From IMG/VR virus record IMGVR_UViG_3300045825_000308, positions 1-63,472 of that record: a stretch of 63,472 nt of DNA. One strand, 5' to 3'. The DNA comes from a virus. Its lineage: Duplodnaviria > Caudoviricetes. The notes beneath the pieces were generated by a model that was not told the origin of the DNA, did not search any database, and worked only from the letters and a program-made list of their open reading frames with translations. Shown in pieces: positions 25,512 to 52,181 of the stretch; the stretch's first letter is position 1; each line of letters opens with the position of its first letter. A program made the position numbers and the translations under genes.

Positions 25512-25796
25512 ATGTTTAACTTTTGCATTGTATTGAATACTGCTCCATTTTATGTGTTGGCTCAAAATGAAAAAGATTTAGAAGAAATTCTAAAAGTTTA
25601 TGAAGGTAAAATTTCTATTGTGGTCAAAGCAAAAGATTTAGAAGTAATGGAATTTAAAATGCAAATGAGTTTGTTTTCTAAAAATACTCTATTAATTCCG
25701 ACAGTGGTCGAAGAAACTCAAGATGCTTTAGCTAAAATGATTAATGCTTCTGAACAAGATGAATTAATTTATGAATTAACTAATGATATTAACTGA
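25512..25796 (+). CDS. hypothetical protein
   Basis: AAGGA RBS; last gene of the tail operon, convergent overlap with the helicase. Confidence 0.6.
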   Translation: MFNFCIVLNTAPFYVLAQNEKDLEEILKVYEGKISIVVKAKDLEVMEFKMQMSLFSKNTLLIPTVVEETQDALAKMINASEQDELIYELTNDIN

Positions 25797-26657
25797 TTTG
25801 CCGTATACTTCTTTAATGATGCTCATTCTAGCTTTAGAGTGGGCAATTAAATTCTTCTGACCATTGTCTATAAAGTCAAAATAATATCCTACTTGTTTGT
25901 TTTTAAAATTTCTCACAACTCTTCCACACTTTTGCATTAATTCAGATTCAGCTTTACCACCACCACAATTAATAATAGCTCCAGCTGCTTTAGTATCAAC
26001 GCCTTCACCTAAAACATCTGTTCCGATTAAACAAGGAATTTCTAAATTATTAAACTTTTTTACCATTTGCATATTATAAGATGCAGATTCATCTTGACCA
26101 TTTAAAAAGACGGCATCCTTTCCAAGGGCGCTTTGCAATTGCCTTCCATGGCCTATGTGTTCCACTAATATAATTGTCGGAACATTATTACGAATCATTT
26201 TTTTAGCTGTTTCAATAACAATTGCATTTCTAGCTTGATTGTTATCAATAAATAAAGGCACATCGCTTTTATAATTCTTCTTAGAAAGAATCTTTTTATT
26301 TGGCATATCAAAGAAAAAACTAACTAACGGTTTAATATATCCTAGATTGATAGCCTCTATAGTGGTAACAGAATATAAGGTATCACTTAAAACAGATTCT
26401 AAATAGATATTAGAATTAGGATCGTTTTTAAAATTCGTCGCTGTTAATCCATACCGATAATAGATTTCCGATAATCGATCGGCAAAATCAATTCTAACGC
26501 CTTCAGCACCAGAATTAGACGTTAAAATACCTTCAGCAACATAGTTATGATTATCTTCAACTGTTATATCATAGACCCACTCATCTGCTGAATCAACCTC
26601 TTCAATACTAATAATTGTTCCTTTGAGTAGTTCTCTGGTATCCTGACAATTTTCCAT
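25776..26657 (-). CDS. SF2 helicase C-terminal part preceded by a 48-aa C-intein
   Basis: VYDITVEDNHNYVAEGILTSN/S; GLTAT, EGVD and QKCGRVVR motifs (III, V, VI). Confidence 0.85.
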   Translation of the reverse strand: MENCQDTRELLKGTIISIEEVDSADEWVYDITVEDNHNYVAEGILTSNSGAEGVRIDFADRLSEIYYRYGLTATNFKNDPNSNIYLESVLSDTLYSVTTIEAINLGYIKPLVSFFFDMPNKKILSKKNYKSDVPLFIDNNQARNAIVIETAKKMIRNNVPTIILVEHIGHGRQLQSALGKDAVFLNGQDESASYNMQMVKKFNNLEIPCLIGTDVLGEGVDTKAAGAIINCGGGKAESELMQKCGRVVRNFKNKQVGYYFDFIDNGQKNLIAHSKARMSIIKEVYGKSVNIIS

Positions 26658-27361
26658 CCAATGCTTCCTAGTCTTATTTCTTTGCGTAAATCTTGTGCTT
26701 CTCTTCCTTTATGCGATGTTCCATCAACTTCAATGCCTATTTTTAAATCAGCATTAGCTAAATCTATTTTATAATTTCGTGGAAATTCACCATCTTTTAA
26801 ACCAATAGCAACTTCTGCTTCAAAGTTTTTAAAAATATCTAGCAAATAGATTTGAGTTGGCGTTAATGCACCACCATTCCCATATGTTCCACGACCAAAA
26901 GGATTATAAGAACCATCAGCAATTTTAGATTTTATTTTTAAAGATTGTTTTGATCGTACTTCGATAGAACGGTTTTTATTTGCCAGCGCAATTATTTCTC
27001 TATGTTTTTTTGATTTGCAGTTTTCTTGCCTAGTTTTAGGGGCAAGTCCCATAGTAAGTTTATCTCCAATTTTCATTTGTTCAATTCTAATCTTCCCATT
27101 ATCAGTTAAAAACTTATGATTTTTTGTTACTATAAATTCTTTTATATTTCCATCTTCATCTTGAACCCTTACTTTTAACATTTTGGGGGGAGCAGGATAT
27201 CTCATAGCATTTATAACTAATTTAGATTCCCATGCTTTACCGTTCCACGATATTACTTTTGGCTTACTGCCGTTATGAAATAACTTATAGATCTCTTCAA
27301 TAGTGCGAGTCTTATATGATTTTGATTTCGATCCAGAAATTTTAGTAAGTGGTGTAAAACA
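26514..27361 (-). mobile_element. intein spanning two reading frames, with endonuclease
   Basis: Cys1 codon at 27361; terminal Asn codon at 26516-26514; +1 Ser restores DEFHHSGA. Confidence 0.85.
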
Positions 27362-27985
27362 ATGATGGAACTCATCAAATATCAATTGAGAAAACTGCTT
27401 AAAGTAATTCGGATCCTTCGATGATAGAGCATGAAAATTCGTAACTATGATTGGCTTATCATGATGAACTTTTAATAATCCAACATCATCTGTTCCGAAA
27501 GATTCTGTTAAATACTCATAAGTCTGTTGTCGAAGATTTCCTGATGGTGTAATGATTAGCGTTGGTCTTTGAGTTCTAATAAGAGCTTCTTTAATAACTC
27601 TGCTTTTTCCAATACCAGTTGGCATTTCTAAAACACCGCTTGTGTTAGTTGCAATAGCATGAGCTCCAAGAATTTGTTCAGGATATAAAGGTGGTTCAAT
27701 TAATCTGTCAATTAAATTAATAGATTTGTGTTTGGGGATGATTCTGTTATCGGCAATATTAACCGGAAGATATCGTTCATCAAAATATTTGCTTACCCTT
27801 TTTACTAAGCCTGTTGGAAAATATCCATCTTCATCTATCAATAGAGTTGTTGAGGCATATCTATTTTTAGTTCTGATCCACGTTGACATGTTAAAATAAC
27901 TTACAGTCATTCGTAAGTTTTTAAGTAAGGATTTATCTAATCCAACAACACGAGACATAGAATTATTTAAAATTATCGTTATCAT
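26564..27985 (-). CDS. SF2 helicase N-terminal part + N-intein + Vsr/EDxHD-like endonuclease
   Basis: MPTGIGKS; DEFHH/CF; VTKNHKF block B; IDLA...IEVDGTSH. Confidence 0.85.
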   Translation of the reverse strand: MITIILNNSMSRVVGLDKSLLKNLRMTVSYFNMSTWIRTKNRYASTTLLIDEDGYFPTGLVKRVSKYFDERYLPVNIADNRIIPKHKSINLIDRLIEPPLYPEQILGAHAIATNTSGVLEMPTGIGKSRVIKEALIRTQRPTLIITPSGNLRQQTYEYLTESFGTDDVGLLKVHHDKPIIVTNFHALSSKDPNYFKQFSQLIFDEFHHCFTPLTKISGSKSKSYKTRTIEEIYKLFHNGSKPKVISWNGKAWESKLVINAMRYPAPPKMLKVRVQDEDGNIKEFIVTKNHKFLTDNGKIRIEQMKIGDKLTMGLAPKTRQENCKSKKHREIIALANKNRSIEVRSKQSLKIKSKIADGSYNPFGRGTYGNGGALTPTQIYLLDIFKNFEAEVAIGLKDGEFPRNYKIDLANADLKIGIEVDGTSHKGREAQDLRKEIRLGSIGWKIVRIPENYSKEQLLVLKRLIQQMSGSMI

Positions 27986-28648
27986 TATACATAATACTTT
28001 CTGTTAATAGAAAAAAAACGGGCGCAACATTGAATAGGTATTCTACGAAGTTGGAAAAGAATGATCTTTTTTATTTTTGCATATCGTTTTTCTGTTATAC
28101 GAAGTATCAGAAGACTCTAGGACCGGTGGTTGGACATTGGTTTTGTCCCCCGCCCTCCAGAGAGGGGGCAAAAAGGCAAAGGAGACTCCTTAAGGTATCT
28201 TAATAAGAGTTTTAAGAAAGACAAGAGAGAGAAAATAAAAATCTAGAGAAAAAATAAGAGAAAAAAATAAAGTCAAGAGAAAAAATATAAATAATTAAAA
28301 ATAAAGATAATAGTAAAAATATATTAAATAAAGATTTACAAAATGAGACTTCTTGATAAAATATCGAAATAAGATTAATATTAAGATTTATATATAAATA
28401 ATTTATAAAAATTATTGTAAAAATTTCAAGGTCTCGCTTCACTTGGGTTCTCGCTCAGTGAAATTTTCCATAATTATAAAAAATTAAATTTAAAAAATAT
28501 TTTAAAATTTTAAAAAACTTCAATTTACGCTATTTGTCATATTACGCAGTACTTCCATCAACACCTCTAGACGCACATCATCAAAAAATACCTTTAAAAT
28601 TATAAGAGTATTATCCATCACAGTATCTATAAAAGTAAAAGGTTATTA
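27986..28648. other. AT-rich divergent intergenic region, candidate replication origin / promoter region
   Basis: no credible ORF; A-rich tract and inverted repeats; lies between helicase and DnaB/primase. Confidence 0.5.
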
Positions 28649-30013
28649 ATGAATCAAGAGATGCAATTACCGTTTGACGATAAATTTCAACTAACATTAT
28701 TAGAATTGATATTATCAGATAAACACGTGGCTGAAAAAAGTTATGTTCATTTAAGACCTGAATTTTTTCCAAATGAATATTTTGCTAAGATCTTTGGAAT
28801 GTTAAAAGGATTAAATGAACTATATGAAGCAGCTCCTTCTCAAAATCAATTAAAAAATGAACTATTAAAGATAACAGATCCTAAACAATCACAACTTTAT
28901 TTAGATATCTATAAACGAATAACTAATCCACAAGATTTTAGAGATTATGAATATACTAAAAAGAACTTAGATTCTTATTTTAAATCTAGAAACATCTTTA
29001 AATTGACCAATGATATCATAAAAAATCAACATCTTCATCCAGATAAACTAACAGAATTAATAGAAAATCATATAAAGACCATATCAGAAATCAGTTTTAA
29101 TAATGTTAAAACGAGAGGATTAGAAAATCTGTTAGGATTCTTAGATGAATGTAAAGCAGATGCTGGTAATTTAATACCAACCTTTCTTCCAACTATAGAT
29201 AAAGCCCTAGGTGGTGGTTGTCCAAGAGGAACTCTTGCAATGGCTATTGGAGCAACTAACGTTGGTAAGTCAGTATGGTTGATTAATTGGACCTATAAAC
29301 TCATTAAAGCTGGTTATAAGGTCCTTTATGTTAATCTTGAGGGATATGAGCGCCAGACCATGCAAAGACTCATCTGTCGAGCCATTAGAGCTCCATTATA
29401 TAATGTGAAGAATAAGATATTAACAGAATTTCAATTAGATCAGGTAGTCAATTTTCAAGAGGAATGCAAAGAAAACTTTAAATTCTTTCATAATAATTCA
29501 TTTGATATGACCATCGAAAGTTTTATACCAGCTTTAAAACACATCGTGTTACATGAATTTAAAGCAGATGTTGTTGTTTATGACTATGGACAATTATTTA
29601 AGTCTAAAAAGAATCATGATGGAAATAGACATGAGCAAGCTTATTGTCATAGAGCAATAACTATGATGGCGGGGGAATTAGATCACTTAGCTGTTACTGT
29701 TGCACAGGGTCAACGAGATACTAACATCAAAAATAGTTCAGCATCTTCATTAACAAGAATGACTGATATTGCAGAATGCTTTGAAATAAATCGAGCAGCA
29801 GCAACTGTCTTTACTTTAAATCGTTCGGAAAGAGATGAAGAAATGGAATGGATAAAAATCTTAATGGATAAACAACGCGATGGCGCCAAGAATATTGTTG
29901 AGATTTGTAAGACAGATTTTCATACTGTTACTATGTTTGGAGATGAATCAGAAGGATTAGGCTTTATTAATGCTAAAACTTATTTAGAACAAACAGCTCA
30001 GAAGCAATTATGA
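28649..30013 (+). CDS. dnaB: replicative DNA helicase, DnaB-like
   Basis: GATNVGKS Walker A; YVNLE; VVYDY; DKQRDG. Confidence 0.85.
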   Translation: MNQEMQLPFDDKFQLTLLELILSDKHVAEKSYVHLRPEFFPNEYFAKIFGMLKGLNELYEAAPSQNQLKNELLKITDPKQSQLYLDIYKRITNPQDFRDYEYTKKNLDSYFKSRNIFKLTNDIIKNQHLHPDKLTELIENHIKTISEISFNNVKTRGLENLLGFLDECKADAGNLIPTFLPTIDKALGGGCPRGTLAMAIGATNVGKSVWLINWTYKLIKAGYKVLYVNLEGYERQTMQRLICRAIRAPLYNVKNKILTEFQLDQVVNFQEECKENFKFFHNNSFDMTIESFIPALKHIVLHEFKADVVVYDYGQLFKSKKNHDGNRHEQAYCHRAITMMAGELDHLAVTVAQGQRDTNIKNSSASSLTRMTDIAECFEINRAAATVFTLNRSERDEEMEWIKILMDKQRDGAKNIVEICKTDFHTVTMFGDESEGLGFINAKTYLEQTAQKQL

Positions 30014-31116
30014 TTAAACTAGAGCCATTTAAAAAAATCCTTAATGATTGTGATATTGGATATCTTGAAAATCAGTCTCACATCATATTGAAAGAATGTC
30101 CTAACTGCAATGGTTCCGATAAGCTTTGGGTTTCTAAAGGTAATCTTCTTTGGAGATGCTTTAAATGTGAAGGTTTAAATTACAACACGGCTAAAGGTAA
30201 TTTTTACACACTATTAAGAGATGTTCTTGGTTTTGACAAATTTGAAATCAAACAGATTCTAAAAGAAAATGAAATTCCGTCATATGTTCCTGAGAAATTA
30301 GAAGCTGCACCGCTTCAAAGAAAAGAATTAATTGAAGATAAAGAAATTAAAATCGATAAGTTTGACATTCCTTCCAACTTTTTCTTATTAGATGGATCAG
30401 AAACTCAATTAAGAAATCACATGGAAGTCTATTCTTATTTAGTATCGCGACATGTTACGAATTTAGAAACTATTCAGAAATTTAAGTTAAGATATAATCC
30501 GGCAGTTAAAAGATTAGTCTTCCCAGTTTATAATGGAGACAAGACATGTGTTGGAGTCCAGACAAGAGATATCACTGATAGATATAAGCAAATGCATCTT
30601 AAGTGTCAGAACTTTGAATGCTCCCTATTCCGTCAATTTTATTTCTTTAAGACAAAAGAAGAAATTTCTCATTGTCCAGAGTGTAGATCAGAACTTTTAG
30701 AATCTTTTTATCCTAAATCATCTAACTCTAGAAATTTTCCTAAGACTGAAATATTTTTTAATCAACAAAATATTGATTGGACTCAGCCAGTAGCTATGGT
30801 AGAAGGTCCTTTCGATTGCACTAACACACCAAATGCTATTGGACTATTAGGAAGAACGCTTTCTTATTCGCAATTGTGGATTATTTTAAATAATTTAAAA
30901 GCACCATTGATTTTATTTTTAGATGGTGATCAAGCTGGAACAGAATCAACGATAGATGTTTATCATAAATTATCTCTATTTGTTGATGATATTAAAATTT
31001 GTTTATTAGAAAATGGCGATGATCCAGGCAGTCATTCAATAGAAGAAAATAAAGTATTATTATCACAAGCGACACACCCGCACACTTGGTTTATAAATAA
31101 ACAAATCATGTTTTAG
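30010..31116 (+). CDS. DNA primase (Zn finger + TOPRIM)
   Basis: CPNC...CFKC; MVEGPFD; LDGDQAG; DDPG. Confidence 0.85.
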   Translation: MIKLEPFKKILNDCDIGYLENQSHIILKECPNCNGSDKLWVSKGNLLWRCFKCEGLNYNTAKGNFYTLLRDVLGFDKFEIKQILKENEIPSYVPEKLEAAPLQRKELIEDKEIKIDKFDIPSNFFLLDGSETQLRNHMEVYSYLVSRHVTNLETIQKFKLRYNPAVKRLVFPVYNGDKTCVGVQTRDITDRYKQMHLKCQNFECSLFRQFYFFKTKEEISHCPECRSELLESFYPKSSNSRNFPKTEIFFNQQNIDWTQPVAMVEGPFDCTNTPNAIGLLGRTLSYSQLWIILNNLKAPLILFLDGDQAGTESTIDVYHKLSLFVDDIKICLLENGDDPGSHSIEENKVLLSQATHPHTWFINKQIMF

Positions 31117-31232
31117 TCTGGCGCATATCACAAAAATAGTTGTCAGTAAATGTCGAATTAATTATGTATCGTCTTCTTAAAACCTATGTAAAGATCCATC
31201 ATCACATTTTTTAGATCTTACATGGAGGCACT

Positions 31233-31955
31233 ATGACGAAGGCGACAGAACTTTATCAGAAACCAGTTTATTCAGACGAACTTTTTAAATCTTTCTATCC
31301 GATGATTTGTAAAGTGATTAATGACACAGTACTTAAATTACCGCAAGGGTCAGAAAACATTGACCGTTATGAAGATTATGTGCAGCGTTGTAGAATTTGG
31401 CTATGGGAACATTGTGAATTATATGATGCCACGCGCACTGGTAAGAATGGCAAGATTTGTAAGTTCTCTACCTATATGCACATGGTATTTTACTCACGAC
31501 TCGGTGCAATTAGAAATAATTTATTAAAGAAAAGAAAAGATAATATTTGTGTTGACTTTTCAAACTTAATGAACCCGCAATCTCTAAATGAAAACACGAA
31601 TAATGACATCTCATATTTATCAGAAGATGTCTGTGTGGATATAGATTTCACAATGCTATTAAAAGAAAAACTGATCTTTCTCCAAAAACTTCTACCACCA
31701 GAAAAATTTGGATTATATAAAGAATACTTTCTTGACGGAAATCAAGAACTTAGTTCCTTATCTGAAAAGTATTTTAATCCAGAGTATAATCAAATTAAAG
31801 AAACGATAAATGAATTAAAGAAAATTCATGAAGACTGTTGGGGAATAAATGTTAAATCCAGAAAACAAGTGCGCAAATCTGTTCAACCAAGAAGTAAAAA
31901 GCATTCAGCATTCTGTCAAGACAATGTTGGACATGCAATTGAGTTTGCAACGTGA
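31233..31955 (+). CDS. sigma-70-like factor
   Basis: region 2-like EDYVQ..RIWLW...YD...KFSTYM; GGAGG RBS. Confidence 0.6.
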   Translation: MTKATELYQKPVYSDELFKSFYPMICKVINDTVLKLPQGSENIDRYEDYVQRCRIWLWEHCELYDATRTGKNGKICKFSTYMHMVFYSRLGAIRNNLLKKRKDNICVDFSNLMNPQSLNENTNNDISYLSEDVCVDIDFTMLLKEKLIFLQKLLPPEKFGLYKEYFLDGNQELSSLSEKYFNPEYNQIKETINELKKIHEDCWGINVKSRKQVRKSVQPRSKKHSAFCQDNVGHAIEFAT

Positions 31956-32286
31956 GTATTTTAAAAGAGGCAAAGGAATTGATTATGATAATGCCTCTTT
32001 TAAAGAAAAGATTAATGAAATCAAAAGCCAAAAGATTAATTTTGATTCTGAGTTTAACGAGTTGCTTGACACACTGCCGTGGAAACCTTGGCGATCATAT
32101 ACTGAAGATCAATTAAAAGGGTTTGCTTCACCAGAAGTAAAGTTAGAAGCGCAATATGAGATCATCGATGGTTTTCATTTTTTCATGAATATGTGTTTAT
32201 TGATGGATATTGATGGTGATACGTTTGAAAAACTTTATATGACTAAGAACAAAGAGAATTTTGATAGACAAGAACGTGGTTATTAA
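31849..32286 (+). CDS. all-alpha dCTPase/dUTPase, T4 gp56-like
   Basis: NKCANL, MLDMQ, EFNELL, WKPW, EIIDGFHF, LYMTKNKENFDRQERGY. Confidence 0.85.
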   Translation: MLNPENKCANLFNQEVKSIQHSVKTMLDMQLSLQREYFKRGKGIDYDNASFKEKINEIKSQKINFDSEFNELLDTLPWKPWRSYTEDQLKGFASPEVKLEAQYEIIDGFHFFMNMCLLMDIDGDTFEKLYMTKNKENFDRQERGY

Positions 32287-32300
32287 ATAAGGAGAACTTT

Positions 32301-32639
32301 ATGACAGAAGAAACAAAAGCAGTTGAACCAAAAGCAACGAAGTATGTTAGACCAAAATATGTTGTAGGTCTTTACAAATCTGGTATGACGAAAATGGAAG
32401 ACTTAATTGAAGCCGTGCGCAATATGGAAAATAGTGTTATTTTACGCAAGAATGTAAAACATCCACGAGATACTTTCTTTTATAAAAGAAATATTCACTG
32501 GGCACTATCTGATGCAACAAAGGCTGGAGAAATCACTGGTTATGTTATTAAACTTAGAAAAGTCAATACAGCAGTAAACAAAAAAGAAGCTCCTGTAAAT
32601 AATGTTGAAACATCAACTGATTCAATCCCAACTATCTAG
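32301..32639 (+). CDS. hypothetical basic protein
   Basis: AAGGAG RBS. Confidence 0.65.
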   Translation: MTEETKAVEPKATKYVRPKYVVGLYKSGMTKMEDLIEAVRNMENSVILRKNVKHPRDTFFYKRNIHWALSDATKAGEITGYVIKLRKVNTAVNKKEAPVNNVETSTDSIPTI

Positions 32640-32648
32640 GAATAACAA

Positions 32649-33155
32649 ATGCTGTGCATCATAGAAGGTTCTGACAAAGCAGGAAAAAGTACATTAGCAA
32701 AACATTTATCCGAAGTATTTAATTTAGAATGCACACATTTGACTAAACCTAAAACTGATGATTCATTTAACGAATATTCAGATATGATTGACAATATCAA
32801 AGGTCCAATGATTTATGATAGAAGTTTCTTGTCTGAATATGTTTATGCAAATCTTTGGCGTGGTGGTTGTAAGATTACTAATGATCAGTTTAGAGCGTTA
32901 GAAAATAAAATTGTTTTGAAAGCTCATGAACTGAAGTTGCAAGTTTTTGTAATTTATGCATTTGCACCACTTGAAATAATTAAAGAAAGATGTATCAAAG
33001 AAAAAGAAGACCTTCTCCAATTAGATCAGGTAGAAAAGTGTCAAAAACTATATTCAGAAATCATGTCTAAAACAATGTTAATGAAAATTAATTATAATTC
33101 TTCAACACAACTGCCTAAACATATCTCACAATTAATTGGTCAATTATCTCAGTAG
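32649..33155 (+). CDS. dNMP kinase (thymidylate kinase-like)
   Basis: IIEGSDKAGKST P-loop; YDRSFLSEYVY. Confidence 0.85.
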   Translation: MLCIIEGSDKAGKSTLAKHLSEVFNLECTHLTKPKTDDSFNEYSDMIDNIKGPMIYDRSFLSEYVYANLWRGGCKITNDQFRALENKIVLKAHELKLQVFVIYAFAPLEIIKERCIKEKEDLLQLDQVEKCQKLYSEIMSKTMLMKINYNSSTQLPKHISQLIGQLSQ

Positions 33156-33165
33156 GAAAATAAAC

Positions 33166-34017
33166 ATGAAAGTTTGGCAAGATATACTTAAAACAGTTCT
33201 TGAGAATGGTGAGAAGAGAAATGATAGGACTGGCTGTGGAACATTGGCTTTATTTAATAAAGTTATCGAATTTGATAATGAATTTTCCTTCCCCGCAGTT
33301 ACAACGAAAAAATTGGCGTTTAAATCAATGGCTAGTGAATTAGCTTGCTTTATTCATGGTAAATCAAAACTATCTGATTTTCATAAATTCAATTGTAAGA
33401 TATGGGATGCTAATGGAAATGCGGATTATTGGTTAAAGAATACAAACAATATTGATCCAGGTAATTATTTGGGTCGCATCTATGGTGTCAACTGGCGTGG
33501 TTGGAAAAGTGTTAATACTACAAAAGAAACATTAGAGATTAAAGAAACAGATCAATTACATGATCTGGTTCAAGCTATTAAAAAAGAGCCACACAGCAGA
33601 AGACATGTGGTCCTAGCTTTTAATCCAGGAGAACTTGATCAAACGGTGCTCCCGGCCTGTCATTTAGGTTTTCAAGTTTTCGTAAGAGGATCGACTCATA
33701 TAGATATAGCTGTTCAAATGAGATCTGTTGATTTGTTTCTTGGTTTACCTTTTGATGTTGCGAGTTACGCTCTTCTCCAAAGACTAATAGCTAAGGAAGT
33801 TGGTTTGACTTCTGGTAAGCTTTATTTCAATTTAGGCGACACTCATATCTATTTGAATCATATTGAGCAAGTCAAAACTATTTTGACTAGAACTCCTCAC
33901 ACACCGCCACAACTCAAGTTATCAGATGATGCTTCTTTGTTTGATTTTCATCCTTCACAAGCGGAATTAGTTAGTTATGAATCATATGGAATACTTGCAG
34001 CTCCCATGAGTGTCTAA
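33166..34017 (+). CDS. ThyA-family enzyme, candidate dCMP (hydroxy)methylase
   Basis: DRTG, SRR, PACH, MRSVDLFLGLPFD, DTHIYLNH; Asp at the Asn177-equivalent position. Confidence 0.85.
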   Translation: MKVWQDILKTVLENGEKRNDRTGCGTLALFNKVIEFDNEFSFPAVTTKKLAFKSMASELACFIHGKSKLSDFHKFNCKIWDANGNADYWLKNTNNIDPGNYLGRIYGVNWRGWKSVNTTKETLEIKETDQLHDLVQAIKKEPHSRRHVVLAFNPGELDQTVLPACHLGFQVFVRGSTHIDIAVQMRSVDLFLGLPFDVASYALLQRLIAKEVGLTSGKLYFNLGDTHIYLNHIEQVKTILTRTPHTPPQLKLSDDASLFDFHPSQAELVSYESYGILAAPMSV

Positions 34018-34030
34018 AGTATAATAGGGC

Positions 34031-37000
34031 ATGATCACATACGCTAATCTAAATACTAAATCACATTATTCAGCAGGTCTAGCAGTTGGCACAACAACTG
34101 AAATTATAAAAAAGGCTATGGAGAAAAAACTTCATGGCCTTGCTTTAACAGATCGCAACACAGCGTCTGGCTTAATTGATTTTTATAATAAAGCAAAAGA
34201 ATTAAAATTCAAAGCATCTCTTGGTATTGAGATTTTTTATTATGATAATGCAAACAAACTTCAAAAAATCGTTCTATTAGCTATTAACCAGGAAGGTTAT
34301 TTTAATCTATGTCATTTAGTAACTAATTCATGGAATAATGTTCATTTATTTAATATGCCATGTGTTTCTTTATACGATTTAAATGAATATTCGCAATATT
34401 TATATTGTTTATCGAGTTCATTTGCACAAAGAAAAGATTTAAAGTCTATCTATAAAGACAAACTAATTTTTCAAATATTCTTAGACTATCAAAATAATGA
34501 AAATAATTTTAATATCTTAAAATCCTCAGAAAAATATATTATTTCATGTGATGCTTTTATTCCTGATTGGGATTTTAAAGAGCTTCAAGATGTAATGTTA
34601 AGCAATAGTAAATCTGCTACTGATGCAGATAAAGCTATTAGCGCTAAGCCAATCTTATCAGCTGTTGAAATAATGCAATATTGGAAAACCAATATGAATT
34701 ATATGACAATAGAACAATTGGCACAAGCTTTTCAATTATCTGTTTCAATTCTAGATGAATGCTCAAAGATTGAATTAAAGTTTAGAGATCAGGTTGTAAA
34801 TTATCCTCACCTTCTTCATCCATTAAATCATGACGGTTGTTCAAAAGAAGAGTTGGTTTATAGAATAGCTAAAGATTATGGAAGATTTCCTATTGATAAT
34901 TCAATATATAAAGACAGATTTGAATATGAGATGGATGCTATCACCAATAACGGAAGAGTAAATCTAATAGATTATTTCTTAGTGCTTGAAGATTTGTGCA
35001 GATGGTGTAGAGAGAATGGTATTACTGTTGGTCCAGGCAGGGGTTCTGGAGCTGGAGCTCTTGTTAACTATTGTCTGAAGATTACTCACTTGGATCCTAT
35101 TGTTTATAATCTTTTATTTGAAAGATTCATATCTAAAGGAAGGATAATCAATGGAAATATGCCCGATGTCGACCTAGATTTTTCCGAGCAAGAACCAGTT
35201 AGAGAATATTTAATAGAAAAATATGGATCTGATCGAGTTTATAGAATAGGAACGTTTCAAACATTAAAAACATTAGGCTCTATTAAAGATATTTGTAAAT
35301 CAATGCAAGATAAATATCCAGAATTAGATTTTGTTACTGTTAATAACGTTACAAAAACTTTTGGAGATAAAGACATAGAAGAATCAGAAGCTGAATTTTT
35401 TGAAAGAGTGTTAGAAGAAAATGAAGTTGCGCAAACCTTCTTCCAAAAATATCCAGATGTATTAAGCAAGGTTGAAAGGCTTGTTGGATATAATAGACAA
35501 GCGGGTATTCATCCCTGCTTTAATGGTAATATGAAAATATTAACAGATATCGGATATAAAACTTTTTATGAATTAGAAAATAAAAGCGCTATGATTTTAA
35601 CGCCATCCGGTTGGAGAAATGCTGTATTTTTTAAAAATGGTATAAAACAAACGTATAAACATATTATCGCAAGATCACATTTATCAACGAGAGGATACAT
35701 AGAAATTATATGTACAAAAGATCATATATTTAAATCAGACAATGATAGTGATTCAGAATTATATAAAAAGAAGATCTTGAGTAATCATAATTGTAATGAG
35801 TTAAGTTTAAATCATTTTTTATTAGGTTGGATATGGAATGATGGTTATTTTAATAAAAATGCAAATAGATTTATTGCATGCATCACCCCAGAGAAGGATA
35901 AGGAATTTTTTAAAATTTTTCCTGAGGATAATTTTCAATTAAAGCAAAAAAAATATGCATATACTTTTAAACATGAATTTAATCAAATTTTTGATAACCT
36001 TGGATATGATTATAATAAAACCACAACTAAGCAGTTTCCAATACAATGGAACACTTGGACAATTATAGAAAAATTTTCATGGCTTAAGGGAATGTTTTCA
36101 GCAAATGGATTTATCGTAAGAAAAAAATTTGGCATTAAATTAACATCTAGAAAATTAATTATTGATATGATTACGGCATTGAATGAATTAGGCATTACGA
36201 CAACAACAAATTTTAATGATCAGCCATCAATCGAGTGGAAATCAAAGGCTGCAAGTTATTTTTATTTAACACAGCATGGTAATAACACTTTTATTAAAGC
36301 TATAGGCTTTGTACAAGATTATAAGAATAATAATATTTTGAAAGATAACAGATATATTGCGCAAAAAATAATTAAACACAACATAGAGCCTGTTTTTGAT
36401 TTTACCGTTATTGATGGAGATCCATATGGCTTGGTTGAGGGATTTTGGGCACACAATTGTGGACTCGCATTGTGTCAAGATAATGTAGAAGACTTTGCTC
36501 CACTGAGATCATATAAGGGCACAAAAGTTTTAGATATTAATGCTGGAGCATGTGAACAATCGGGAATTTTAAAATATGATATCTTAGGATTAAGAACTTT
36601 AAAATATATTCAAGCCACATGTGATCTCGTTGGCATTAAAGATATTTACTCTATACCGTTGGATGATAGACTAACCCACAATAAGTTTGCTGAGGGAGAT
36701 ACTAATGGAGTGTTTCAGTTTAATTCTGATGTAGCTATTGGAATCTTAACAATGATACCAAAGAATAAAATGTCTTTGGATGTTGAATCATTAACAACAT
36801 CATGTGGACGTCCAGGACCAATGCGAAATGGACAGCATATTGAATTTGCAAAAAGAGTGAGTGGTGATAGATTAGCAACAGCTCCGCACCCAGCACTTGA
36901 AGAAGAATTAAAATCAACATTCGGAATTATGATTTATCAAGAAAATGTTATGAAGACATCACAAATACTTGGTGGATTTTCTTTAGCCGAAGCAGATGAT

Positions 37001-38020
37001 ATTAGACGCGCAATGGGTAAAAAGAAAGCATCTGTGCTTGCTCCATATAAAAGTAGATTCATTGACAATTGTCAACTTAAATTTCCTGAAACTAAAGATA
37101 AATATTTAGATGAAAAAAATCCAAGCTCAACTATATCTAAAGCAGAATACATTTGGAACTTAATGGCTACATTTTCCGGGTATGGTTTTTGCAAGGCCCA
37201 CAGCGTTGCATATACTCTTATTGGTTATCAATGTCAATATTTAAAGACTCATCATCATCTTGAATGGTGGACAGCTTGCTTAATGCATGCTAAGTCAGAT
37301 AAGATTCAATCTTATTATCAAGATGCTATGCAGTATTGTATCGATCCAGATATTAATAAATCACAAGAAAACTATAAAATTATTGATGGCAAAATTCAAA
37401 TGCCACTAACCTCTATTAAGGGATTAGGGCCAAAAGCTTCACAAGACATTTATTACTTGAGACCATTCACTTCAATGCAAGATTGTTTAACTAGAGTCAA
37501 CAAAAGAGCTGTTAATAAAAAAGTTGCTCTCCAATTGATTTATGCAGGTTGTTTTGACTCACTTCATCCAGAAGGAAAACAACATCTAGTTAATGAATAC
37601 TTTAGATTTCGTGGTGAAAAAGCACCAGAAGAATTAAAAACCCTAACAAGAAATCAATTAACAGACTTTAGAATTAAAGCTTTGTCTTATTTGCAGAGAG
37701 ATTTATATGAAATCTTTGCAGATATATTTTCAGAACCATTAACGCAATATGAAAATATAGTTATGACCAATGAGCCAATCCATATACTTGGAAAAGTAGA
37801 TTCACTAAAGAAAAAGAAAACAAAGAATGGTAATGATTTTGGCGACTTAATGATTTCAAATAATGGCGAAGTATTAAAGATAAGAATGTGGGAAGACGAA
37901 TTGAAATGTTACAAAGAGAACTTAAAAGAAAAGAATGAACTAAGACTAAAATGTAAAGTGTCAGAGTACAATAACCAAGTACAGCTTACATTAATTAGTT
38001 GTAAAATATTGGGAGTTTAA
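34031..38020 (+). CDS. dnaE: DNA polymerase III alpha subunit with intein
   Basis: GPGRGSGAG, FERF, PDVDLD, KYDILGL, GVFQF, IYQE, GYGFCKAHS; C-terminal OB fold. Confidence 0.95.
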   Translation: MITYANLNTKSHYSAGLAVGTTTEIIKKAMEKKLHGLALTDRNTASGLIDFYNKAKELKFKASLGIEIFYYDNANKLQKIVLLAINQEGYFNLCHLVTNSWNNVHLFNMPCVSLYDLNEYSQYLYCLSSSFAQRKDLKSIYKDKLIFQIFLDYQNNENNFNILKSSEKYIISCDAFIPDWDFKELQDVMLSNSKSATDADKAISAKPILSAVEIMQYWKTNMNYMTIEQLAQAFQLSVSILDECSKIELKFRDQVVNYPHLLHPLNHDGCSKEELVYRIAKDYGRFPIDNSIYKDRFEYEMDAITNNGRVNLIDYFLVLEDLCRWCRENGITVGPGRGSGAGALVNYCLKITHLDPIVYNLLFERFISKGRIINGNMPDVDLDFSEQEPVREYLIEKYGSDRVYRIGTFQTLKTLGSIKDICKSMQDKYPELDFVTVNNVTKTFGDKDIEESEAEFFERVLEENEVAQTFFQKYPDVLSKVERLVGYNRQAGIHPCFNGNMKILTDIGYKTFYELENKSAMILTPSGWRNAVFFKNGIKQTYKHIIARSHLSTRGYIEIICTKDHIFKSDNDSDSELYKKKILSNHNCNELSLNHFLLGWIWNDGYFNKNANRFIACITPEKDKEFFKIFPEDNFQLKQKKYAYTFKHEFNQIFDNLGYDYNKTTTKQFPIQWNTWTIIEKFSWLKGMFSANGFIVRKKFGIKLTSRKLIIDMITALNELGITTTTNFNDQPSIEWKSKAASYFYLTQHGNNTFIKAIGFVQDYKNNNILKDNRYIAQKIIKHNIEPVFDFTVIDGDPYGLVEGFWAHNCGLALCQDNVEDFAPLRSYKGTKVLDINAGACEQSGILKYDILGLRTLKYIQATCDLVGIKDIYSIPLDDRLTHNKFAEGDTNGVFQFNSDVAIGILTMIPKNKMSLDVESLTTSCGRPGPMRNGQHIEFAKRVSGDRLATAPHPALEEELKSTFGIMIYQENVMKTSQILGGFSLAEADDIRRAMGKKKASVLAPYKSRFIDNCQLKFPETKDKYLDEKNPSSTISKAEYIWNLMATFSGYGFCKAHSVAYTLIGYQCQYLKTHHHLEWWTACLMHAKSDKIQSYYQDAMQYCIDPDINKSQENYKIIDGKIQMPLTSIKGLGPKASQDIYYLRPFTSMQDCLTRVNKRAVNKKVALQLIYAGCFDSLHPEGKQHLVNEYFRFRGEKAPEELKTLTRNQLTDFRIKALSYLQRDLYEIFADIFSEPLTQYENIVMTNEPIHILGKVDSLKKKKTKNGNDFGDLMISNNGEVLKIRMWEDELKCYKENLKEKNELRLKCKVSEYNNQVQLTLISCKILGV
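35516..36457 (+). mobile_element. cis intein (314 aa) with LAGLIDADG-type endonuclease
   Basis: GIHP/CFNG; CTKDH; LLGWIWNDG; LKGMFSANG; VFDF...AHN/C. Confidence 0.9.
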
Positions 38021-38545
38021 ATGCAAACTGAAGAACAAATTAAAGAACAGATGAAAGAATACGGAGTTGAATTAGTAATCAATCCTGGTCCACTATATAA
38101 TATTGGAGATGATACAATTCATATTGAGTGTGATCTTGATATTAATCTTGGATTAGATTGGATTAATAATTGCGTTCTAACAAAAATAACTAAGCGTAAT
38201 ACAAAAATGTTTTGTACTTTTGAGCAAAAACCAGAAACATTAACAATTAAGTTTGCGACTATTCTTCCAAAGAGTTTTAAAGAAACCTATAAACCAGTTT
38301 ATGGAAAACAAGTTTGTACTACTTTTCCAGACTTATGCTGGTTATATTCAGAAGGAACCACAACTCAAACACTAACAGAAGTAGAAACCAAGCCTAGAGA
38401 CAATGTTCCGACTGGAGATTTACTTTGGCTGTTATCTTCTCGATTTGCAGATGATTTAATTGAAATGATCCACACTATTAACCCAGAATTTATGTCAGGC
38501 CTAATGCGCGATGCCGTGTGTTATGGACCATATTATAATTTTTAG
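38021..38545 (+). CDS. hypothetical protein
   Basis: abuts the dnaE stop; GGAG RBS. Confidence 0.65.
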   Translation: MQTEEQIKEQMKEYGVELVINPGPLYNIGDDTIHIECDLDINLGLDWINNCVLTKITKRNTKMFCTFEQKPETLTIKFATILPKSFKETYKPVYGKQVCTTFPDLCWLYSEGTTTQTLTEVETKPRDNVPTGDLLWLLSSRFADDLIEMIHTINPEFMSGLMRDAVCYGPYYNF

Positions 38546-38578
38546 ACTCTAGTCGAGTCATATTTTTAAGGAGTATCT

Positions 38579-39541
38579 ATGTCTAATGAGTATTTTGGTT
38601 TTGATGACAACATGTTTTCTTCTACACAGAGGATTAAATTCACATCTTTTAAAAATGGTGAACACCGTTTTAGAGTGCTTCCGCCGTTTGCACAAGGTAA
38701 ACTTTACCATCAAGTTGATCTTCACTGGGGATTTACTGATGAAAATAATAAAAAGAAAGCTTTAAAATGTACTAAATATGAATTTAAGACTTGTGCTATC
38801 TGTGATGAAGCTGATAAAGCAAAAGCAGACGCCGATATGATTTCTAAGAATCCACAAGGATTTGCTTCTTCAGAAGAACTTAAAATGGCCTTTGATGAAA
38901 AAATGAAAAGATATAGTGACTTGAAAAAGAAAGCATCTTATCTATGGAATATCATGGCTGATGATGGAGTTCCTACAGTTCTTCAATTATCATGGAATGG
39001 TCATGAACAATTATTCAATAAGGTTAGATTTCTTTGGGAACAAAGTAAAATCAATGTTTCTGATGCTAACAACAGCACTCAATTGTGGTGTTCAAGAACT
39101 GGCCAAGGCGTAATGACTCGTTATCAATTTGAAACAATTGCTAACTCAGGTAGAAAACTAGAAAACATTGGACAGTTAGTTGATCTCACAAAAGTATATA
39201 AAGAAACAACTCCATCTGAATTGAAGTTGATTGTAGATCGTGGTTATGTTCCTCAAACTTTGGAAGATCCAAATGATAGAAATTTCAAAGCTGCTCCGGC
39301 AAACAGTATGAAAGACATTCCAGCTTACCAAGCGCCAGCGGCTCAGGCTCAACCAGTAGTTCAAACTCAACCACAAGAAGTTGCTGCACCAACCTATCAA
39401 GCACAATTTGATCAGGCAACTACACCACAACAGAATCCTTCTCCAGTTGTTGCTCAAGTAGTTCTTCCTGTAGCTCCTGTTAATAATATTAATATTGAAG
39501 ATGATATTGCTAAGATGCAAAATCTATTAGGACAAAGGTAG
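38579..39541 (+). CDS. single-stranded DNA-binding protein, T4 gp32-like
   Basis: RFRVLPP; H...C...CAIC zinc motif; low-complexity tail; recombination gene context. Confidence 0.75.
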   Translation: MSNEYFGFDDNMFSSTQRIKFTSFKNGEHRFRVLPPFAQGKLYHQVDLHWGFTDENNKKKALKCTKYEFKTCAICDEADKAKADADMISKNPQGFASSEELKMAFDEKMKRYSDLKKKASYLWNIMADDGVPTVLQLSWNGHEQLFNKVRFLWEQSKINVSDANNSTQLWCSRTGQGVMTRYQFETIANSGRKLENIGQLVDLTKVYKETTPSELKLIVDRGYVPQTLEDPNDRNFKAAPANSMKDIPAYQAPAAQAQPVVQTQPQEVAAPTYQAQFDQATTPQQNPSPVVAQVVLPVAPVNNINIEDDIAKMQNLLGQR

Positions 39542-39544
39542 AAA

Positions 39545-39985
39545 ATGTTTTCTGTTAGATATAAAGATTCTGCTGAATTTCAAAACGCACATGAGAAAAA
39601 GTTTGAATCTATATTGTCAGCAACAACTAAACTAAAGTCATCAAGCCAGATTTCGGAGTCTGGCTTTGCTTTGGTTGAAACAGAAAGACTTACGTATGAA
39701 TTTTTAAATCTATCGGCAGTTTGTTCTGATCTTCTGTTTGGATTATCTGCTAGTGTCTTAGATGCTAAAGCTAAAATGAAACAAATTGAGGGTATGTTCT
39801 TTAGAGATTTAACTGTTAAGACTTCCGCTATTGATAAAGCAAAGCTTGTTCATTGTTTACCACAATATATAGAAGCAGACAAGAATTATAATGATTTAAC
39901 AGATTTGGCAGATTACATCTTAATGAAAAAGAAAGATTTTGATTCTGCACATTATCACTATCGTGAATTAAATAATAAAAAATAA
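39545..39985 (+). CDS. UvsY-like recombination mediator
   Basis: helical ~146 aa between SSB and RecA. Confidence 0.5.
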   Translation: MFSVRYKDSAEFQNAHEKKFESILSATTKLKSSSQISESGFALVETERLTYEFLNLSAVCSDLLFGLSASVLDAKAKMKQIEGMFFRDLTVKTSAIDKAKLVHCLPQYIEADKNYNDLTDLADYILMKKKDFDSAHYHYRELNNKK

Positions 39986-39994
39986 GGAAATTAT

Positions 39995-41080
39995 ATGACT
40001 GAAGAAACCACCACTCCTCCAATTAAGAAAAATCTATTTGGAAATCTTCTTAAGATTGAAGGATTTTATAAAGCATCTACAATAGTAGATGAGTTAAATG
40101 CCATCATCCCACAACGCAACACTCTTTATTCAACATCTCCATCTTTATCCTGGTTATCTGGTGGATTCATTCCTGGAATGATGTCTCTTTGGTATGGTCC
40201 AAAATCTTCTGGCAAGACAATGCTGACACTTGATTTAATTAAGAATGCCCTTAACCAAGAACCAGATGGCATTGTTGTTTATGTCGATGCTGAAATGTCT
40301 TTTGAAAAAGAGCCAACAATTAAATGGATGATAGCTAATGGAGTCGATGTTAGTAGGGTTATGCTCTTAAGAGAAATATGTATTAAAGAAATTTTTGATG
40401 TAAAAATTTTAAAAGATATTCAACTATCTATTAAAAATGATGGCACTAAAGTAATAGCCATTGTCTTAGATTCTGTTCAAGCAACATCTATGCATAATTT
40501 ACCCAACACTGATAAACAAATTCTTAATGCAGATTATGCAAAGCAAGATTTTGGTGCACGGGCAAATTATTTATCTAGAATTTTTCCACAACTTAGGGCA
40601 TTTTGCAGAAATTACAATGTGCATTTCTTTTTTATTGGTCAAGCACGATCAGGTGGAAAAGATTTTTACGGAAATGAAATTATCATAACTACGGGTGGCG
40701 AAGCCCTCCAGCATGAAATCCAATATAAATTTTTGATAACTCCAGATGGAGAGCCGATTTTTCATGAAACTGACAAAGATGCCGACGGAAAATTTATAAA
40801 AGTAGGACACCAAATAAAAATTGTGTGCTTAAAAAACAAGGTCTCGGAAGGCCAAGATAAAGTCGGGTGGGTTAAAATAAAATATATGCAAGGCATTGTT
40901 GATACTGAGAGTGAACTAGTTGATATCTGCACTAAGCTAAATATAGTTAATACCGCTGGAGCATGGTTATCGTATTCCGATAAAAAATGGAATGGCGCAG
41001 CTAAGATGGCAGAGTATTTAAAAGAAGATCAACTAATGTATCGTGAGCTTTATAATAAAATGCTATTTAGAATGGGTTAA
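39995..41080 (+). CDS. RecA/UvsX-like recombinase
   Basis: YGPKSSGKT; YVDAE; VLDSV; TGGEAL; KNKV; AGAWLSY. Confidence 0.9.
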   Translation: MTEETTTPPIKKNLFGNLLKIEGFYKASTIVDELNAIIPQRNTLYSTSPSLSWLSGGFIPGMMSLWYGPKSSGKTMLTLDLIKNALNQEPDGIVVYVDAEMSFEKEPTIKWMIANGVDVSRVMLLREICIKEIFDVKILKDIQLSIKNDGTKVIAIVLDSVQATSMHNLPNTDKQILNADYAKQDFGARANYLSRIFPQLRAFCRNYNVHFFFIGQARSGGKDFYGNEIIITTGGEALQHEIQYKFLITPDGEPIFHETDKDADGKFIKVGHQIKIVCLKNKVSEGQDKVGWVKIKYMQGIVDTESELVDICTKLNIVNTAGAWLSYSDKKWNGAAKMAEYLKEDQLMYRELYNKMLFRMG

Positions 41081-51306: not shown

Positions 51307-51371
51307 CCTTTATAAGGAATTAAAATGTTTGTTAATAAAAAGATCTTAGCTGCTGACGCTGAATGTTTTCA
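51304..51371 (+). repeat. 68-bp direct repeat, copy 1
   Basis: identical to 52314-52381. Confidence 0.95.
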
Positions 51372-51386
51372 GTCTATAATACTTAT

Positions 51387-52181
51387 ATGATTAGATTATG
51401 GCACGGAGATTGTTTAGAGAAGATGAAGGATATACCCTCTAAGAGTATAGACCTCATACTAACTGACCCACCTTACGGGACAACCGCTTGTAAGTGGGAC
51501 GCTATTATACCTTTTGATCTAATGTGGTTAGAATTGAATAGAGTCATTAAAGACAATGGTGCAATCGTATTATTTGGCGGTGAACCTTTTAGTAGCCATT
51601 TACGAACGAGCAATTTAGGTATGTTTAAGTATGATTGGTACTGGAATAAGTCTAGTAACTCAGGATTTGTAAATGCTAAATTAAAGCCAATGAACACCGT
51701 TGAGACAATATCTGTTTTTAGTAAAGGTAAAACTTCAAATGGCAATAAAAACAATATGCTATATTTTCCACAAGGATTATTGCCTTACGGCAAAATAACG
51801 AAAAACGGCAATAAGCCTACAAAGGAAAATTCACCTGGCCGTACAAATAATAAATCTTCAAATGGTGGATATTTACAAGAGTTCACTAACTACCCCAAAA
51901 ACTATTTAAGTTTTGATATGGTTCGGGCTGGTGCAGTTCACCCCACCCAAAAACCAGTTGCTCTACTAGAATATCTAATCAAAACATATACTTTAGAGAA
52001 TGAAACCGTACTAGATTTCACTATGGGCAGTGGTAGTACAGGTATAGCTTGTATAAATACTAAACGTAAGTTTATAGGCATAGAGAAAGATGATAAGTAT
52101 TTCCAAGTAGCTAAAGATAGAATAGATAGTCGAATCTTGGATCACTGTGAAGAAGTATCTAACTTCGCCCCTGCTATCTAA
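51387..52181 (+). CDS. DNA amino-methyltransferase (N6-A/N4-C, beta class)
   Basis: GDCLE; TDPPY; HPTQKP; LDFTMGSGSTG. Confidence 0.92.
   Translation: MIRLWHGDCLEKMKDIPSKSIDLILTDPPYGTTACKWDAIIPFDLMWLELNRVIKDNGAIVLFGGEPFSSHLRTSNLGMFKYDWYWNKSSNSGFVNAKLKPMNTVETISVFSKGKTSNGNKNNMLYFPQGLLPYGKITKNGNKPTKENSPGRTNNKSSNGGYLQEFTNYPKNYLSFDMVRAGAVHPTQKPVALLEYLIKTYTLENETVLDFTMGSGSTGIACINTKRKFIGIEKDDKYFQVAKDRIDSRILDHCEEVSNFAPAI

Follow-up and report, generated by a model that had tools for sequence, protein, structure and literature searches.

A thymidylate synthase (ThyA) in which Asn177 is exchanged for Asp (N177D; positions follow Escherichia coli ThyA) has its substrate switched from deoxyuridine monophosphate (dUMP) to deoxycytidine monophosphate (dCMP), and the product of such mutants is 5-methyl-dCMP (5mdCMP) (eLife 2021). 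In the MetaGPA analysis, positions 177 and 147 were the residues most associated with cytosine-modified contigs, the association of 177 being the strongest (eLife 2021). The enzyme of phage Xp12 and 5 of 7 metagenomic synthase homologues predicted from residue 177 to act on dCMP gave 5mdCMP in vivo, in an assay where the synthase was produced in E. coli alongside T4 gp1 and 5-methyl-deoxycytidine (5mdC) was found in the DNA (bioRxiv 2024.12.05.627091). The principle is already published: cytosine-modified phage contigs from metagenomes carry synthase homologues with Asp177, which are widespread in metaviromes, make modified dCMP in phages and have 5mdCMP as a product. Here we compare with these systems a module of four genes from the IMG/VR virus record IMGVR_UViG_3300045825_000308. 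The window, that is, the whole stretch of DNA analysed, is one whole phage contig of 63,472 bp, a length that the database gives for the longest contig with the window's own protein. The module, formed by four tightly packed plus-strand genes directly upstream of an intein-bearing gene for DnaE, encodes a gp56-like pyrophosphatase, a protein of 112 amino acids (aa), a nucleotide kinase and a ThyA-like synthase (Table 1). As judged from its sequence, this module would probably destroy deoxycytidine triphosphate (dCTP) and make 5-methyl-dCTP, with 5-methylcytosine (5mC) replacing most or all of the cytosine.

The synthase covers positions 3-266 of the 266 of the Pfam profile PF00303 (263.6 bits, cut-off 24.3) and shares about 40% identity with thymidylate synthases of solved structure and of phages (40.6% in its best cultured-phage match), but only 22% with T4 gp42. 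Its motif reads QMRSVDLFLGLPFDVA and contains the Asp codon. In a MAFFT alignment with E. coli ThyA, Gln165 was replaced by Met and Asn177 by Asp, and in the HMMER alignment to solved thymidylate synthases the stretch mrsvdlflglpfd stood opposite qrsadiflgvpfn. Both canonical residues of dUMP-specific ThyA are replaced, and all the catalytic and phosphate-binding ones (R21, E58, W80, Y94, R126, R127, C146, R166, S167, D169, H207 and Y209), as well as His147 and Trp83, are kept. An initial annotation of this DNA, made from its letters and without database searches, had pointed to Asp in the place of the Asn of ThyA as a switch from dUMP to dCMP; the residue was found in both alignments and the switch is a published rule (eLife 2021). 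The Met of its MRS-type motif, which was said to be common to T4 gp42, is also present in that enzyme, so that the window synthase and gp42 have both Met165 and Asp177. The synthase open reading frame (ORF) 33136-34017 exists as well, but its start is most likely the ATG at 33166 (283 aa), 10 nucleotides (nt) past the kinase stop, rather than the TTG at 33136, because the database gene call has the same length of 283 aa and the alignment with E. coli ThyA begins at this Met.

The conservation of these residues was studied in the 120 closest homologues from a collection of 5.8 billion proteins, which were 49-100% identical to the window synthase. Asp177 was present in 119 of them, P0093 being the sole case with Asn, and Met165 in 110. 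Leu143 and Asp169 were each found in all 120, whereas T4 gp42 has Asp at 143. Cys146, the catalytic residue, and those that serve phosphate and folate binding and the proton relay were invariant, with the exception of R127 (119/120). In a set of 233 thymidylate-synthase loci from viral and metagenome collections, position 177 was Asn in 211 and Asp in 16, and the motif was not seen in 6. Because Asp177 is fixed in 119 of the 120 homologues, yet is found in only 16 of 233 loci overall, these alignments argue that it is more than chance or a sequencing error.

A tree of 86 rows was obtained by an IQ-TREE quick search, with support from the Shimodaira-Hasegawa-like approximate likelihood ratio test (SH-aLRT) only. 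It comprised the window synthase, E. coli ThyA, T4 gp42, the Xp12 enzyme, 26 of the 120 homologues, every one of the 16 Asp loci and a random draw of 40 from the Asn loci. The window synthase fell inside a clade of 36 rows, all with Asp177 (SH-aLRT 99), and within it in a subclade of nine rows with P0002-P0009 (support 95). The Xp12 enzyme and T4 gp42 were placed outside the 36-row clade, on very long branches; the phylogeny with these two enzymes, which the initial annotation had named as a check, thus sets the window synthase apart from both. Three further small Asp lineages were seen (L025-27, L014/L016 and L162/L198), and therefore the Asn-to-Asp switch arose more than once. Loci L025, L026 and L027, viral contigs of about 170 kb and so T4-sized, form one of these lineages, with Gln165 retained (QRSVDVFLGLPFD). 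Their synthase gene adjoins a T4-type dihydrofolate reductase (DHFR) gene, and their synthases group in the tree with an Asn177 enzyme (N_L019); as read from the tree, this switch is independent and perhaps recent.

Several residues have been related to the product of these enzymes. A bulky hydrophobic residue or Leu at 143 goes with a methyl product and L143D/E with a hydroxymethyl one, and Asn169 (D169N) marks the 5-hydroxy-dCMP synthases, every one tested having Asn (NAR 2026). The signature of the hydroxymethylases is Asp or Glu three residues before the catalytic Cys (Cys-3) together with Ser or Thr two residues before the Tyr (Tyr-2); moreover, the T4 dCMP hydroxymethylase is without the C-terminal tail by which ThyA seals its active site when hydride is transferred, and the D145N mutation of the T4 enzyme abolishes activity (IUCrJ 2019). 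The window synthase has Leu at Cys-3, Arg at Tyr-2 (two before Tyr94), Asp169 and a full ThyA-like tail ending in APMSV. It therefore carries the three features of a dCMP methyltransferase (Asp177, a non-acidic residue at 143 and Asp169), none of the three features of a hydroxymethylase, and Asp in the position where the 5-hydroxy-dCMP synthases of the RB69 gp48 and DLP3 gp80 type have Asn169. The diagnostic residues point to a dCMP methylase giving 5-methyl-dCMP and dihydrofolate, and not to a hydroxymethylase or a 5-hydroxylase. This reading as a reductive methylation is suggested because of the Leu, the Arg, Asp169 and the full tail, which also bear out the preference of the initial annotation for 5mC over 5-hydroxymethylcytosine.

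The pathway that we propose is a pre-replicative cytosine-replacement module of four genes, which would be co-transcribed with the replication genes. The gp56-like enzyme would hydrolyse dCTP, and probably also deoxycytidine diphosphate (dCDP) and deoxyuridine triphosphate (dUTP), to the monophosphate, so that the dCTP pool is emptied and dCMP is supplied. Asp177 of the ThyA-derived enzyme would then bind and protonate the cytosine, and the one-carbon unit of methylene-tetrahydrofolate would be transferred and reduced, giving 5-methyl-dCMP and dihydrofolate; its reduction is expected because the active site stays closed and hydrophobic as in ThyA. The kinase, similar to YorR and to thymidylate kinases, would phosphorylate 5-methyl-dCMP to 5-methyl-dCDP, the host nucleoside diphosphate kinase would produce 5-methyl-dCTP, and the phage DnaE replicase would incorporate it, with 5mC standing for most or all cytosine in the virion DNA. 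The supply of deoxythymidine triphosphate (dTTP) and, through the host reductase, the recycling of dihydrofolate would be left to the host. We infer every enzymatic step, the extent of the cytosine replacement and the anti-restriction benefit from the observed homologies, residues and their conservation, and gene neighbourhoods. Taken as a whole, the cytosine-replacement reading of the initial annotation is supported in silico, since each of its parts that could be tested on sequence came out as predicted, including the presence of the four ORFs and of the DnaE gene that follows them.

The gaps between the genes of the module are of 9-14 nt and no plus-strand terminator-like site was found in 28000-38545, which is consistent with co-expression with the replication genes. 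A promoter scan gave 81 matches, not above the 86.1 obtained in shuffled sequences. For the search of other functions, 85 non-overlapping ORFs of at least 55 aa were chosen from the 133 ORFs of the contig and compared with Pfam profiles. No glycosyltransferase, carbamoyltransferase, dioxygenase or other known tailoring enzyme was detected among these 85 ORFs, in agreement with the lack of a glycosyltransferase claimed by the initial annotation for the window. Neither was a deaminase, a DHFR, a second thymidylate synthase, a ThyX nor a ribonucleotide reductase found among them by Pfam. Many ORFs of the contig, however, have no family assignment.

The pyrophosphatase matched Pfam dUTPase_2 (PF08761; 29.6 bits, cut-off 22.9) and PHROG 173 (E 4.9e-19). 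By BLASTP it is 35% identical to T4 gp56 (E 1e-20), with both acidic motifs and the C-terminal KNKxNFxRQxxGY aligned, and the four gp56 motifs quoted in the initial annotation were all located (Table 1). Its homologues are 143-146 aa long and cover 99-100% of the 145-aa ORF, and for this reason the start at 31849 is taken as real. The database gene call for this protein is a shorter form of 117 aa, and the beginning of the gene overlaps by 107 nt (31849-31955) with an upstream ORF of 240 aa (31233-31955). Among cultured phages, 1390 records match the gp56-like family, and 37 of the 40 rows listed across the ranking come from records of 160-178 kb, many of them annotated as dCTP pyrophosphatase; the relatives in cultured phages are thus nearly all dCTPases of the T-even type. 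The T4 record states that gp56 clears dCTP, dCDP, dUTP and deoxyuridine diphosphate (dUDP) from the pool. The names of the close homologues are mixed, as both "dCTP pyrophosphatase" and "dimeric dUTPase" are used.

Between the pyrophosphatase and the synthase lie, as described initially, the 112-aa gene and the kinase gene. The kinase gave 26.7 bits with Pfam Thymidylate_kin (PF02223), just under the cut-off of 27 and in the P-loop region 5-40 only, and matched PHROG 761 "thymidylate kinase" with E 1.9e-14. When the profile of its family was compared with PDB, the match to YorR of SPbeta (2axp/3kb2) was full length (E 4.2e-16) and those to thymidylate kinases were limited to the P-loop. BLASTP gave no sequence similarity to T4 gp1 (best E 0.069 over 13 residues). 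The deoxynucleoside monophosphate kinase that the initial annotation had placed in this T4-like set is a P-loop nucleotide kinase, which is YorR/thymidylate-kinase-like and not gp1-like. Its family has 17 members in the large protein collection. YorR/Tmk-like "nucleotide kinases" are listed beside cytosine-modifying synthase homologues in DLP3, RB69 and RL38J1 (NAR 2026, Table 1), and therefore the pairing of a kinase with such a synthase has a precedent. The 112-aa protein had no match in Pfam, PHROG or cultured phages and only five relatives at E<=0.001 among 1.84 billion representatives; in the Atlas feature and structure searches no score exceeded 0.86 and only sub-threshold winged-helix-like leads were obtained. 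Its family presents a conserved core, YVRPKYV...RD..FY; beyond a linker that varies, the protein itself and 3 of the 4 relatives aligned with it have a conserved C-terminal end, IPT[IL], which could be a short partner-binding tail.

Table 1. Features of the module and of other genes in the 63,472-bp contig.
Feature	Position	Strand	Remarks
gp56-like all-alpha deoxynucleoside triphosphate pyrophosphatase, predicted dCTPase/dUTPase	31849..32286	+	145 aa
gp56 motif MLDMQ	31924-31938	+	
gp56 motif EFNELL	32050-32067	+	
gp56 motif EIIDGFHF	32158-32181	+	
gp56 motif KNKENFDRQERGY	32245-32283	+	
112-aa gene, rare family	32301..32639	+	
P-loop nucleotide monophosphate kinase, YorR/thymidylate-kinase-like, predicted 5-methyl-dCMP kinase	32649..33155	+	168 aa
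Kinase P-loop	32667-32693	+	
ThyA-like enzyme, Asp177/Met165/Leu143, predicted dCMP C5-methyltransferase	33166..34017	+	283 aa; Pfam Thymidylat_synt E 2e-78
CTC codon, Leu at E. coli position 143	33649..33651	+	Three residues before catalytic Cys (33658-33660)
Codon ATG for Met165 (E. coli numbering)	33718..33720	+	Gln in ThyA
Codon GAT for Asp177 (E. coli ThyA numbering)	33754..33756	+	
DnaE-type (family C) DNA polymerase alpha subunit with intein	34031..38020	+	Pfam PHP, DNA_pol3_alpha, finger, HHH_6
DnaE intein, 314 aa	35516-36457		LAGLIDADG-type match; bounds HP/CFNG and WAHN/C; between NTPase and finger domains
N6/N4-type DNA methyltransferase	51363-52181		Pfam N6_N4_Mtase E 2.3e-33

Comparison of the neighbourhoods of the 233 loci revealed an Xp12-like dCMP deaminase in 9/16 Asp177 loci versus 7/211 Asn177 loci, and a T4-type DHFR in 3/16 (all of the L025-27 lineage) versus 89/211. 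A Pfam tally of about 4.5 kb around the synthase was made in 12 of the 16 Asp177 loci, leaving out L025-27, which belong to the other lineage, and L162, which has 1.7 kb. It gave deaminase in 9, MafB19-deam in 9, PRA-PH in 7, DNA_pol_A in 3 and dUTPase_2 in 1. In the control, 12 Asn177 loci drawn at random from the 157 of at least 9 kb, DHFR was found in 6 and neither deaminase nor PRA-PH appeared among the families with two or more members. According to bioRxiv 2024.12.05.627091, dCMP-acting synthases co-localise with dCMP-deaminase-family genes, PRA-PH and PolA. Since this published neighbourhood was reproduced independently here, the clade of the window synthase, as judged by neighbourhood, is the one already tied to cytosine-modified phages.

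The subclade of the window seems to carry the gp56-type enzyme and the kinase in place of the deaminase and PRA-PH. Seven of the 16 non-window members of the kinase family are on contigs equal in size to the ones on which the synthases nearest to that of the window (P0002-5 and P0007-9) are encoded, namely of 76764, 10478, 47397, 8896, 81663, 63677 and 8924 bp, and gp56-like homologues are on contigs of three of these sizes. Searches of the DNA of the loci did not show the module. By tblastn, the gp56-like gene, orf112, the kinase, DnaE, DnaB, primase and single-stranded DNA-binding protein (SSB) genes were not found in the related synthase loci (153, then 227). With phmmer the gp56-like gene was detected in 2/211 Asn loci and the other neighbour genes in none. 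Local hidden Markov models found the kinase in 0/227 loci and the gp56 type in one Asp locus, weakly, and in two Asn loci. The conservation of the module rests for this reason on the equal contig sizes. None of the closest synthase relatives (66-78% identity) came up when viral and metagenome contigs were scanned, the best locus being at 55%.

Several observations weigh against a replacement of cytosine by 5mC. In the alignment made here, Asn143 and a Ser at Tyr-2 are present in the Xp12 enzyme, a proven methylase, and therefore the diagnostic residue rules, which are correlations, are not absolute. The window synthase is only 27% identical to that enzyme, and 2 of the 7 tested homologues gave no 5mdC (bioRxiv 2024.12.05.627091). 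The nearest named families of the kinase act on thymidine monophosphate (dTMP), its specificity for 5mdCMP being a prediction, and enzymes of the gp56 family can be plain dUTPases, some close homologues being labelled "dimeric dUTPase". Moreover, the co-occurrence of kinase, pyrophosphatase and synthase in the relatives is read from equal contig sizes and not from the DNA itself, and the 16 readable Asp177 loci gave no match for the window-type kinase and a single, weak one for the gp56 type. Finally, GAATTC (EcoRI-type) is absent from both strands, a strong avoidance of the site, since dinucleotide shuffles contained 28.9 +/- 5.9 and a Markov model predicts about 51 when both strands are counted. 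Therefore, the phage also relies on site avoidance against at least one restriction specificity, and there are evidently restriction enzymes to which its DNA is not immune; this avoidance is neutral to mildly contrary to a claim of blanket protection.

These points have to be weighed with the explanations that would compete with 5mC replacement. The 5-methyl-dCMP, along with dCTP-derived nucleotides, could be mainly a route to dTTP through deamination of 5-methyl-dC nucleotides to dT nucleotides, with the kinase acting on dTMP and little or only partial 5mC in the DNA. Such a bypass fits the same Asp177 clade, in which a dCMP-deaminase-family gene is usual (9/16 loci, 9/12 in the Pfam tally) and whose deaminases have been proposed to turn part of the 5mdCTP pool into dTTP (bioRxiv 2024.12.05.627091), and also fits the thymidylate kinases as nearest named family of the kinase and the ORF scans of the contig, where no dUMP-type thymidylate synthase of the phage's own was found. 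However, no deaminase-family gene is among the 85 ORFs, 5mC still fully replaces cytosine in Xp12, which is the model for this route (eLife 2021; bioRxiv 2024.12.05.627091), and a dedicated dCTPase fits the exclusion of cytosine better than the supply of dTTP alone, so that we regard the bypass as unlikely. It is very improbable that the three enzymes are an ordinary dTTP module of dUTPase, thymidylate synthase and thymidylate kinase, with the Asp as a tolerated variant and unmodified DNA. Their three Pfam and PHROG names match that pathway exactly, true thymidylate synthases share about 40% identity with the synthase, whose catalytic residues and C-terminal tail are intact, and the GAATTC avoidance shows a reliance on site avoidance. 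Nevertheless, Asp177 is fixed in 119 of 120 clade members along with Met165, N-to-D mutants of ThyA become dCMP methylases and Asp177 has the strongest residue association with cytosine-modified contigs (eLife 2021), 5 of 7 tested homologues of the predicted type gave 5mdCMP in vivo (bioRxiv 2024.12.05.627091), and DHFR, the typical partner of true synthases, is far less common in Asp177 loci (3/16) than in Asn177 ones (89/211).

We also give very little credence to another product at C5, either 5-hydroxymethyl-dCMP or 5-hydroxy-dCMP, perhaps tailored by one of the many unannotated genes. The combination of Asp177 and Met165 in T4 gp42, the abundance of contig ORFs without family and the Asn143 of Xp12, by which the residue rules are not absolute, would allow it. 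Against it stand the Leu at Cys-3 of all 120 homologues, where hydroxymethylases have Asp or Glu and the D145N change kills the T4 enzyme (IUCrJ 2019), the lack of Ser or Thr at Tyr-2, the sealing C-terminal tail and the retained Asp169, which is Asn in the tested 5-hydroxy-dCMP synthases. In addition, identity to gp42 is of 22% and glycosyl-, carbamoyl- and other transferases were not detected among the 85 ORFs.

The contig, with a G+C content of about 32%, belongs to a tailed phage, as a large terminase, a holin, a GH25 lysozyme and tail proteins are encoded on it. Its replication genes are those for a DnaB-like helicase, a primase, DnaE, SSB, a RecA-like protein and an SbcCD-like fusion, and the tRNA scan of the contig found zero tRNA genes. 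The stretch is present in two wetland metagenome runs, as contigs, in which base modification is not visible. A megablast search with 28000-40000 gave no match in cultured phages. On the minus strand (25776-27985), a DEAD/SNF2-type helicase is encoded by two overlapping ORFs in different frames. The first (26564-27985) contains ResIII, the N-terminal part of an intein and a DUF559/MTES-type endonuclease domain, and the second (25776-26657) begins with a C-terminal intein part of about 47 aa ending in TSN/S, followed by Helicase_C; the pair is a "fractured gene" with a split intein or else an intein that carries a frameshift. The N6_N4_Mtase gene makes a second, post-replicative DNA modification likely. 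Under the Markov model GATC, CATG, CTAG and GTAC were mildly depleted and GGCC, CCGG, GCGC and CGCG were not, whereas GATC was not depleted relative to dinucleotide shuffles (214 vs 220.6). Palindrome statistics were dropped as a proxy of modification since they depend on the model, only the absence of GAATTC being robust. The observed/expected ratio of CpG was 0.59, with TG/CA mildly raised (1.12); such a pattern is common where the GC content is low, and CpG depletion says nothing about global 5mC.

As the principle has been published before, this locus opens no new question. A layout with a gp56-type dCTPase, a dedicated small kinase and DnaE, and with no deaminase or DHFR, is not described in the titles and abstracts listed by our literature searches. 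If our reading is true, this would be a third accessory-gene layout for pre-replicative 5mC DNA, besides the Xp12 type and the deaminase/PRA-PH type. It would provide three compact enzymes: a dCMP methylase that occurs in nature and keeps an almost canonical ThyA scaffold, a kinase that is a candidate for acting on 5mdCMP, and a dCTPase expected to spare 5mdCTP. The three enzymes would possibly be useful for producing 5mC nucleotides or fully methylated DNA. Regarding annotation, the labels "dUTPase + thymidylate kinase + thymidylate synthase" can mask a cytosine-replacement pathway, which positions 143, 169 and 177 would reveal. A further-reaching proposal, which we make only tentatively, is that the module is a distinct, self-contained route to fully 5mC DNA. 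In it, a T4-type exclusion of dCTP would be combined with a dCMP methylase that derives from ThyA and with a YorR-like kinase of narrow distribution. This kinase would have evolved to serve 5-methyl-dCMP, a specificity that has yet to be described. The route would feed DnaE and do without a deaminase and a DHFR, which all the 5mC phages characterised so far have as partners; the rare 112-aa protein, with its conserved C-terminal tail, might tether the enzymes to the replisome.

Xp12, together with phages of the PaMx74 type, is alike in having an Asp177 enzyme that converts dCMP to 5mdCMP before replication, 5mC in place of cytosine and no glycosylation, all of which are predictions on the side of the window. 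However, the Xp12 enzyme, on its separate branch and at 27% identity, is not of the same lineage as the window synthase and, unlike it, has Leu165, Pro147 and Asn143 and no ThyA tail. Its gene, of a type found in 75 cultured phage records, lies between a HAD hydrolase gene and those for a dCMP deaminase and DHFR, and the polymerase is of family A (DNA polymerase I); the window has instead the gp56-type pyrophosphatase, the YorR-like kinase and DnaE, without deaminase or DHFR. The MetaGPA modules, composed of a synthase, a 5mC-selective enzyme of the dCMP-deaminase family, PRA-PH and PolA, belong, judged by neighbourhood, to the same ThyA-like Asp177 clade, and the top domains listed in bioRxiv 2024.12.05.627091 are the same as in the 12 Asp177 loci of our tally. 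Relative to them, the window has a gp56/dUTPase_2-type enzyme for PRA-PH, a dedicated kinase in addition, no deaminase, and uses DnaE.

The likeness to gp56, gp42 and gp1 of T4 consists of a gp56-homologous pyrophosphatase, a dCMP-modifying enzyme of the synthase fold in which Asp177 and Met165 are both present, and a kinase of the phage's own that takes the modified monophosphate. Nevertheless, the window synthase is ThyA-like (22% identity to gp42) and has no hydroxymethylase signature, its kinase is unrelated to gp1 in sequence, there are no glucosyltransferases, and the polymerase is of family C whereas that of T4 is of family B. DLP3, RB69 and RL38J1 also encode a small kinase of the Tmk/YorR fold beside a cytosine-modifying synthase homologue, and YorR is the best PDB match of the window kinase family, the kinases being likened by description; these phages differ in having a gp1-type kinase as well and in their product, 5-hydroxy-dCMP with arabinosyl or hexosyl tailoring. 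Finally, the window synthase would be the natural counterpart of the engineered dCMP methylases Lactobacillus casei N229D and E. coli N177D ThyA, with the single specificity switch on a ThyA scaffold and the methyl-transfer machinery otherwise intact, and compared to these mutants the natural clade also fixes the change from Gln165 to Met and further ones (Val168, Tyr82).

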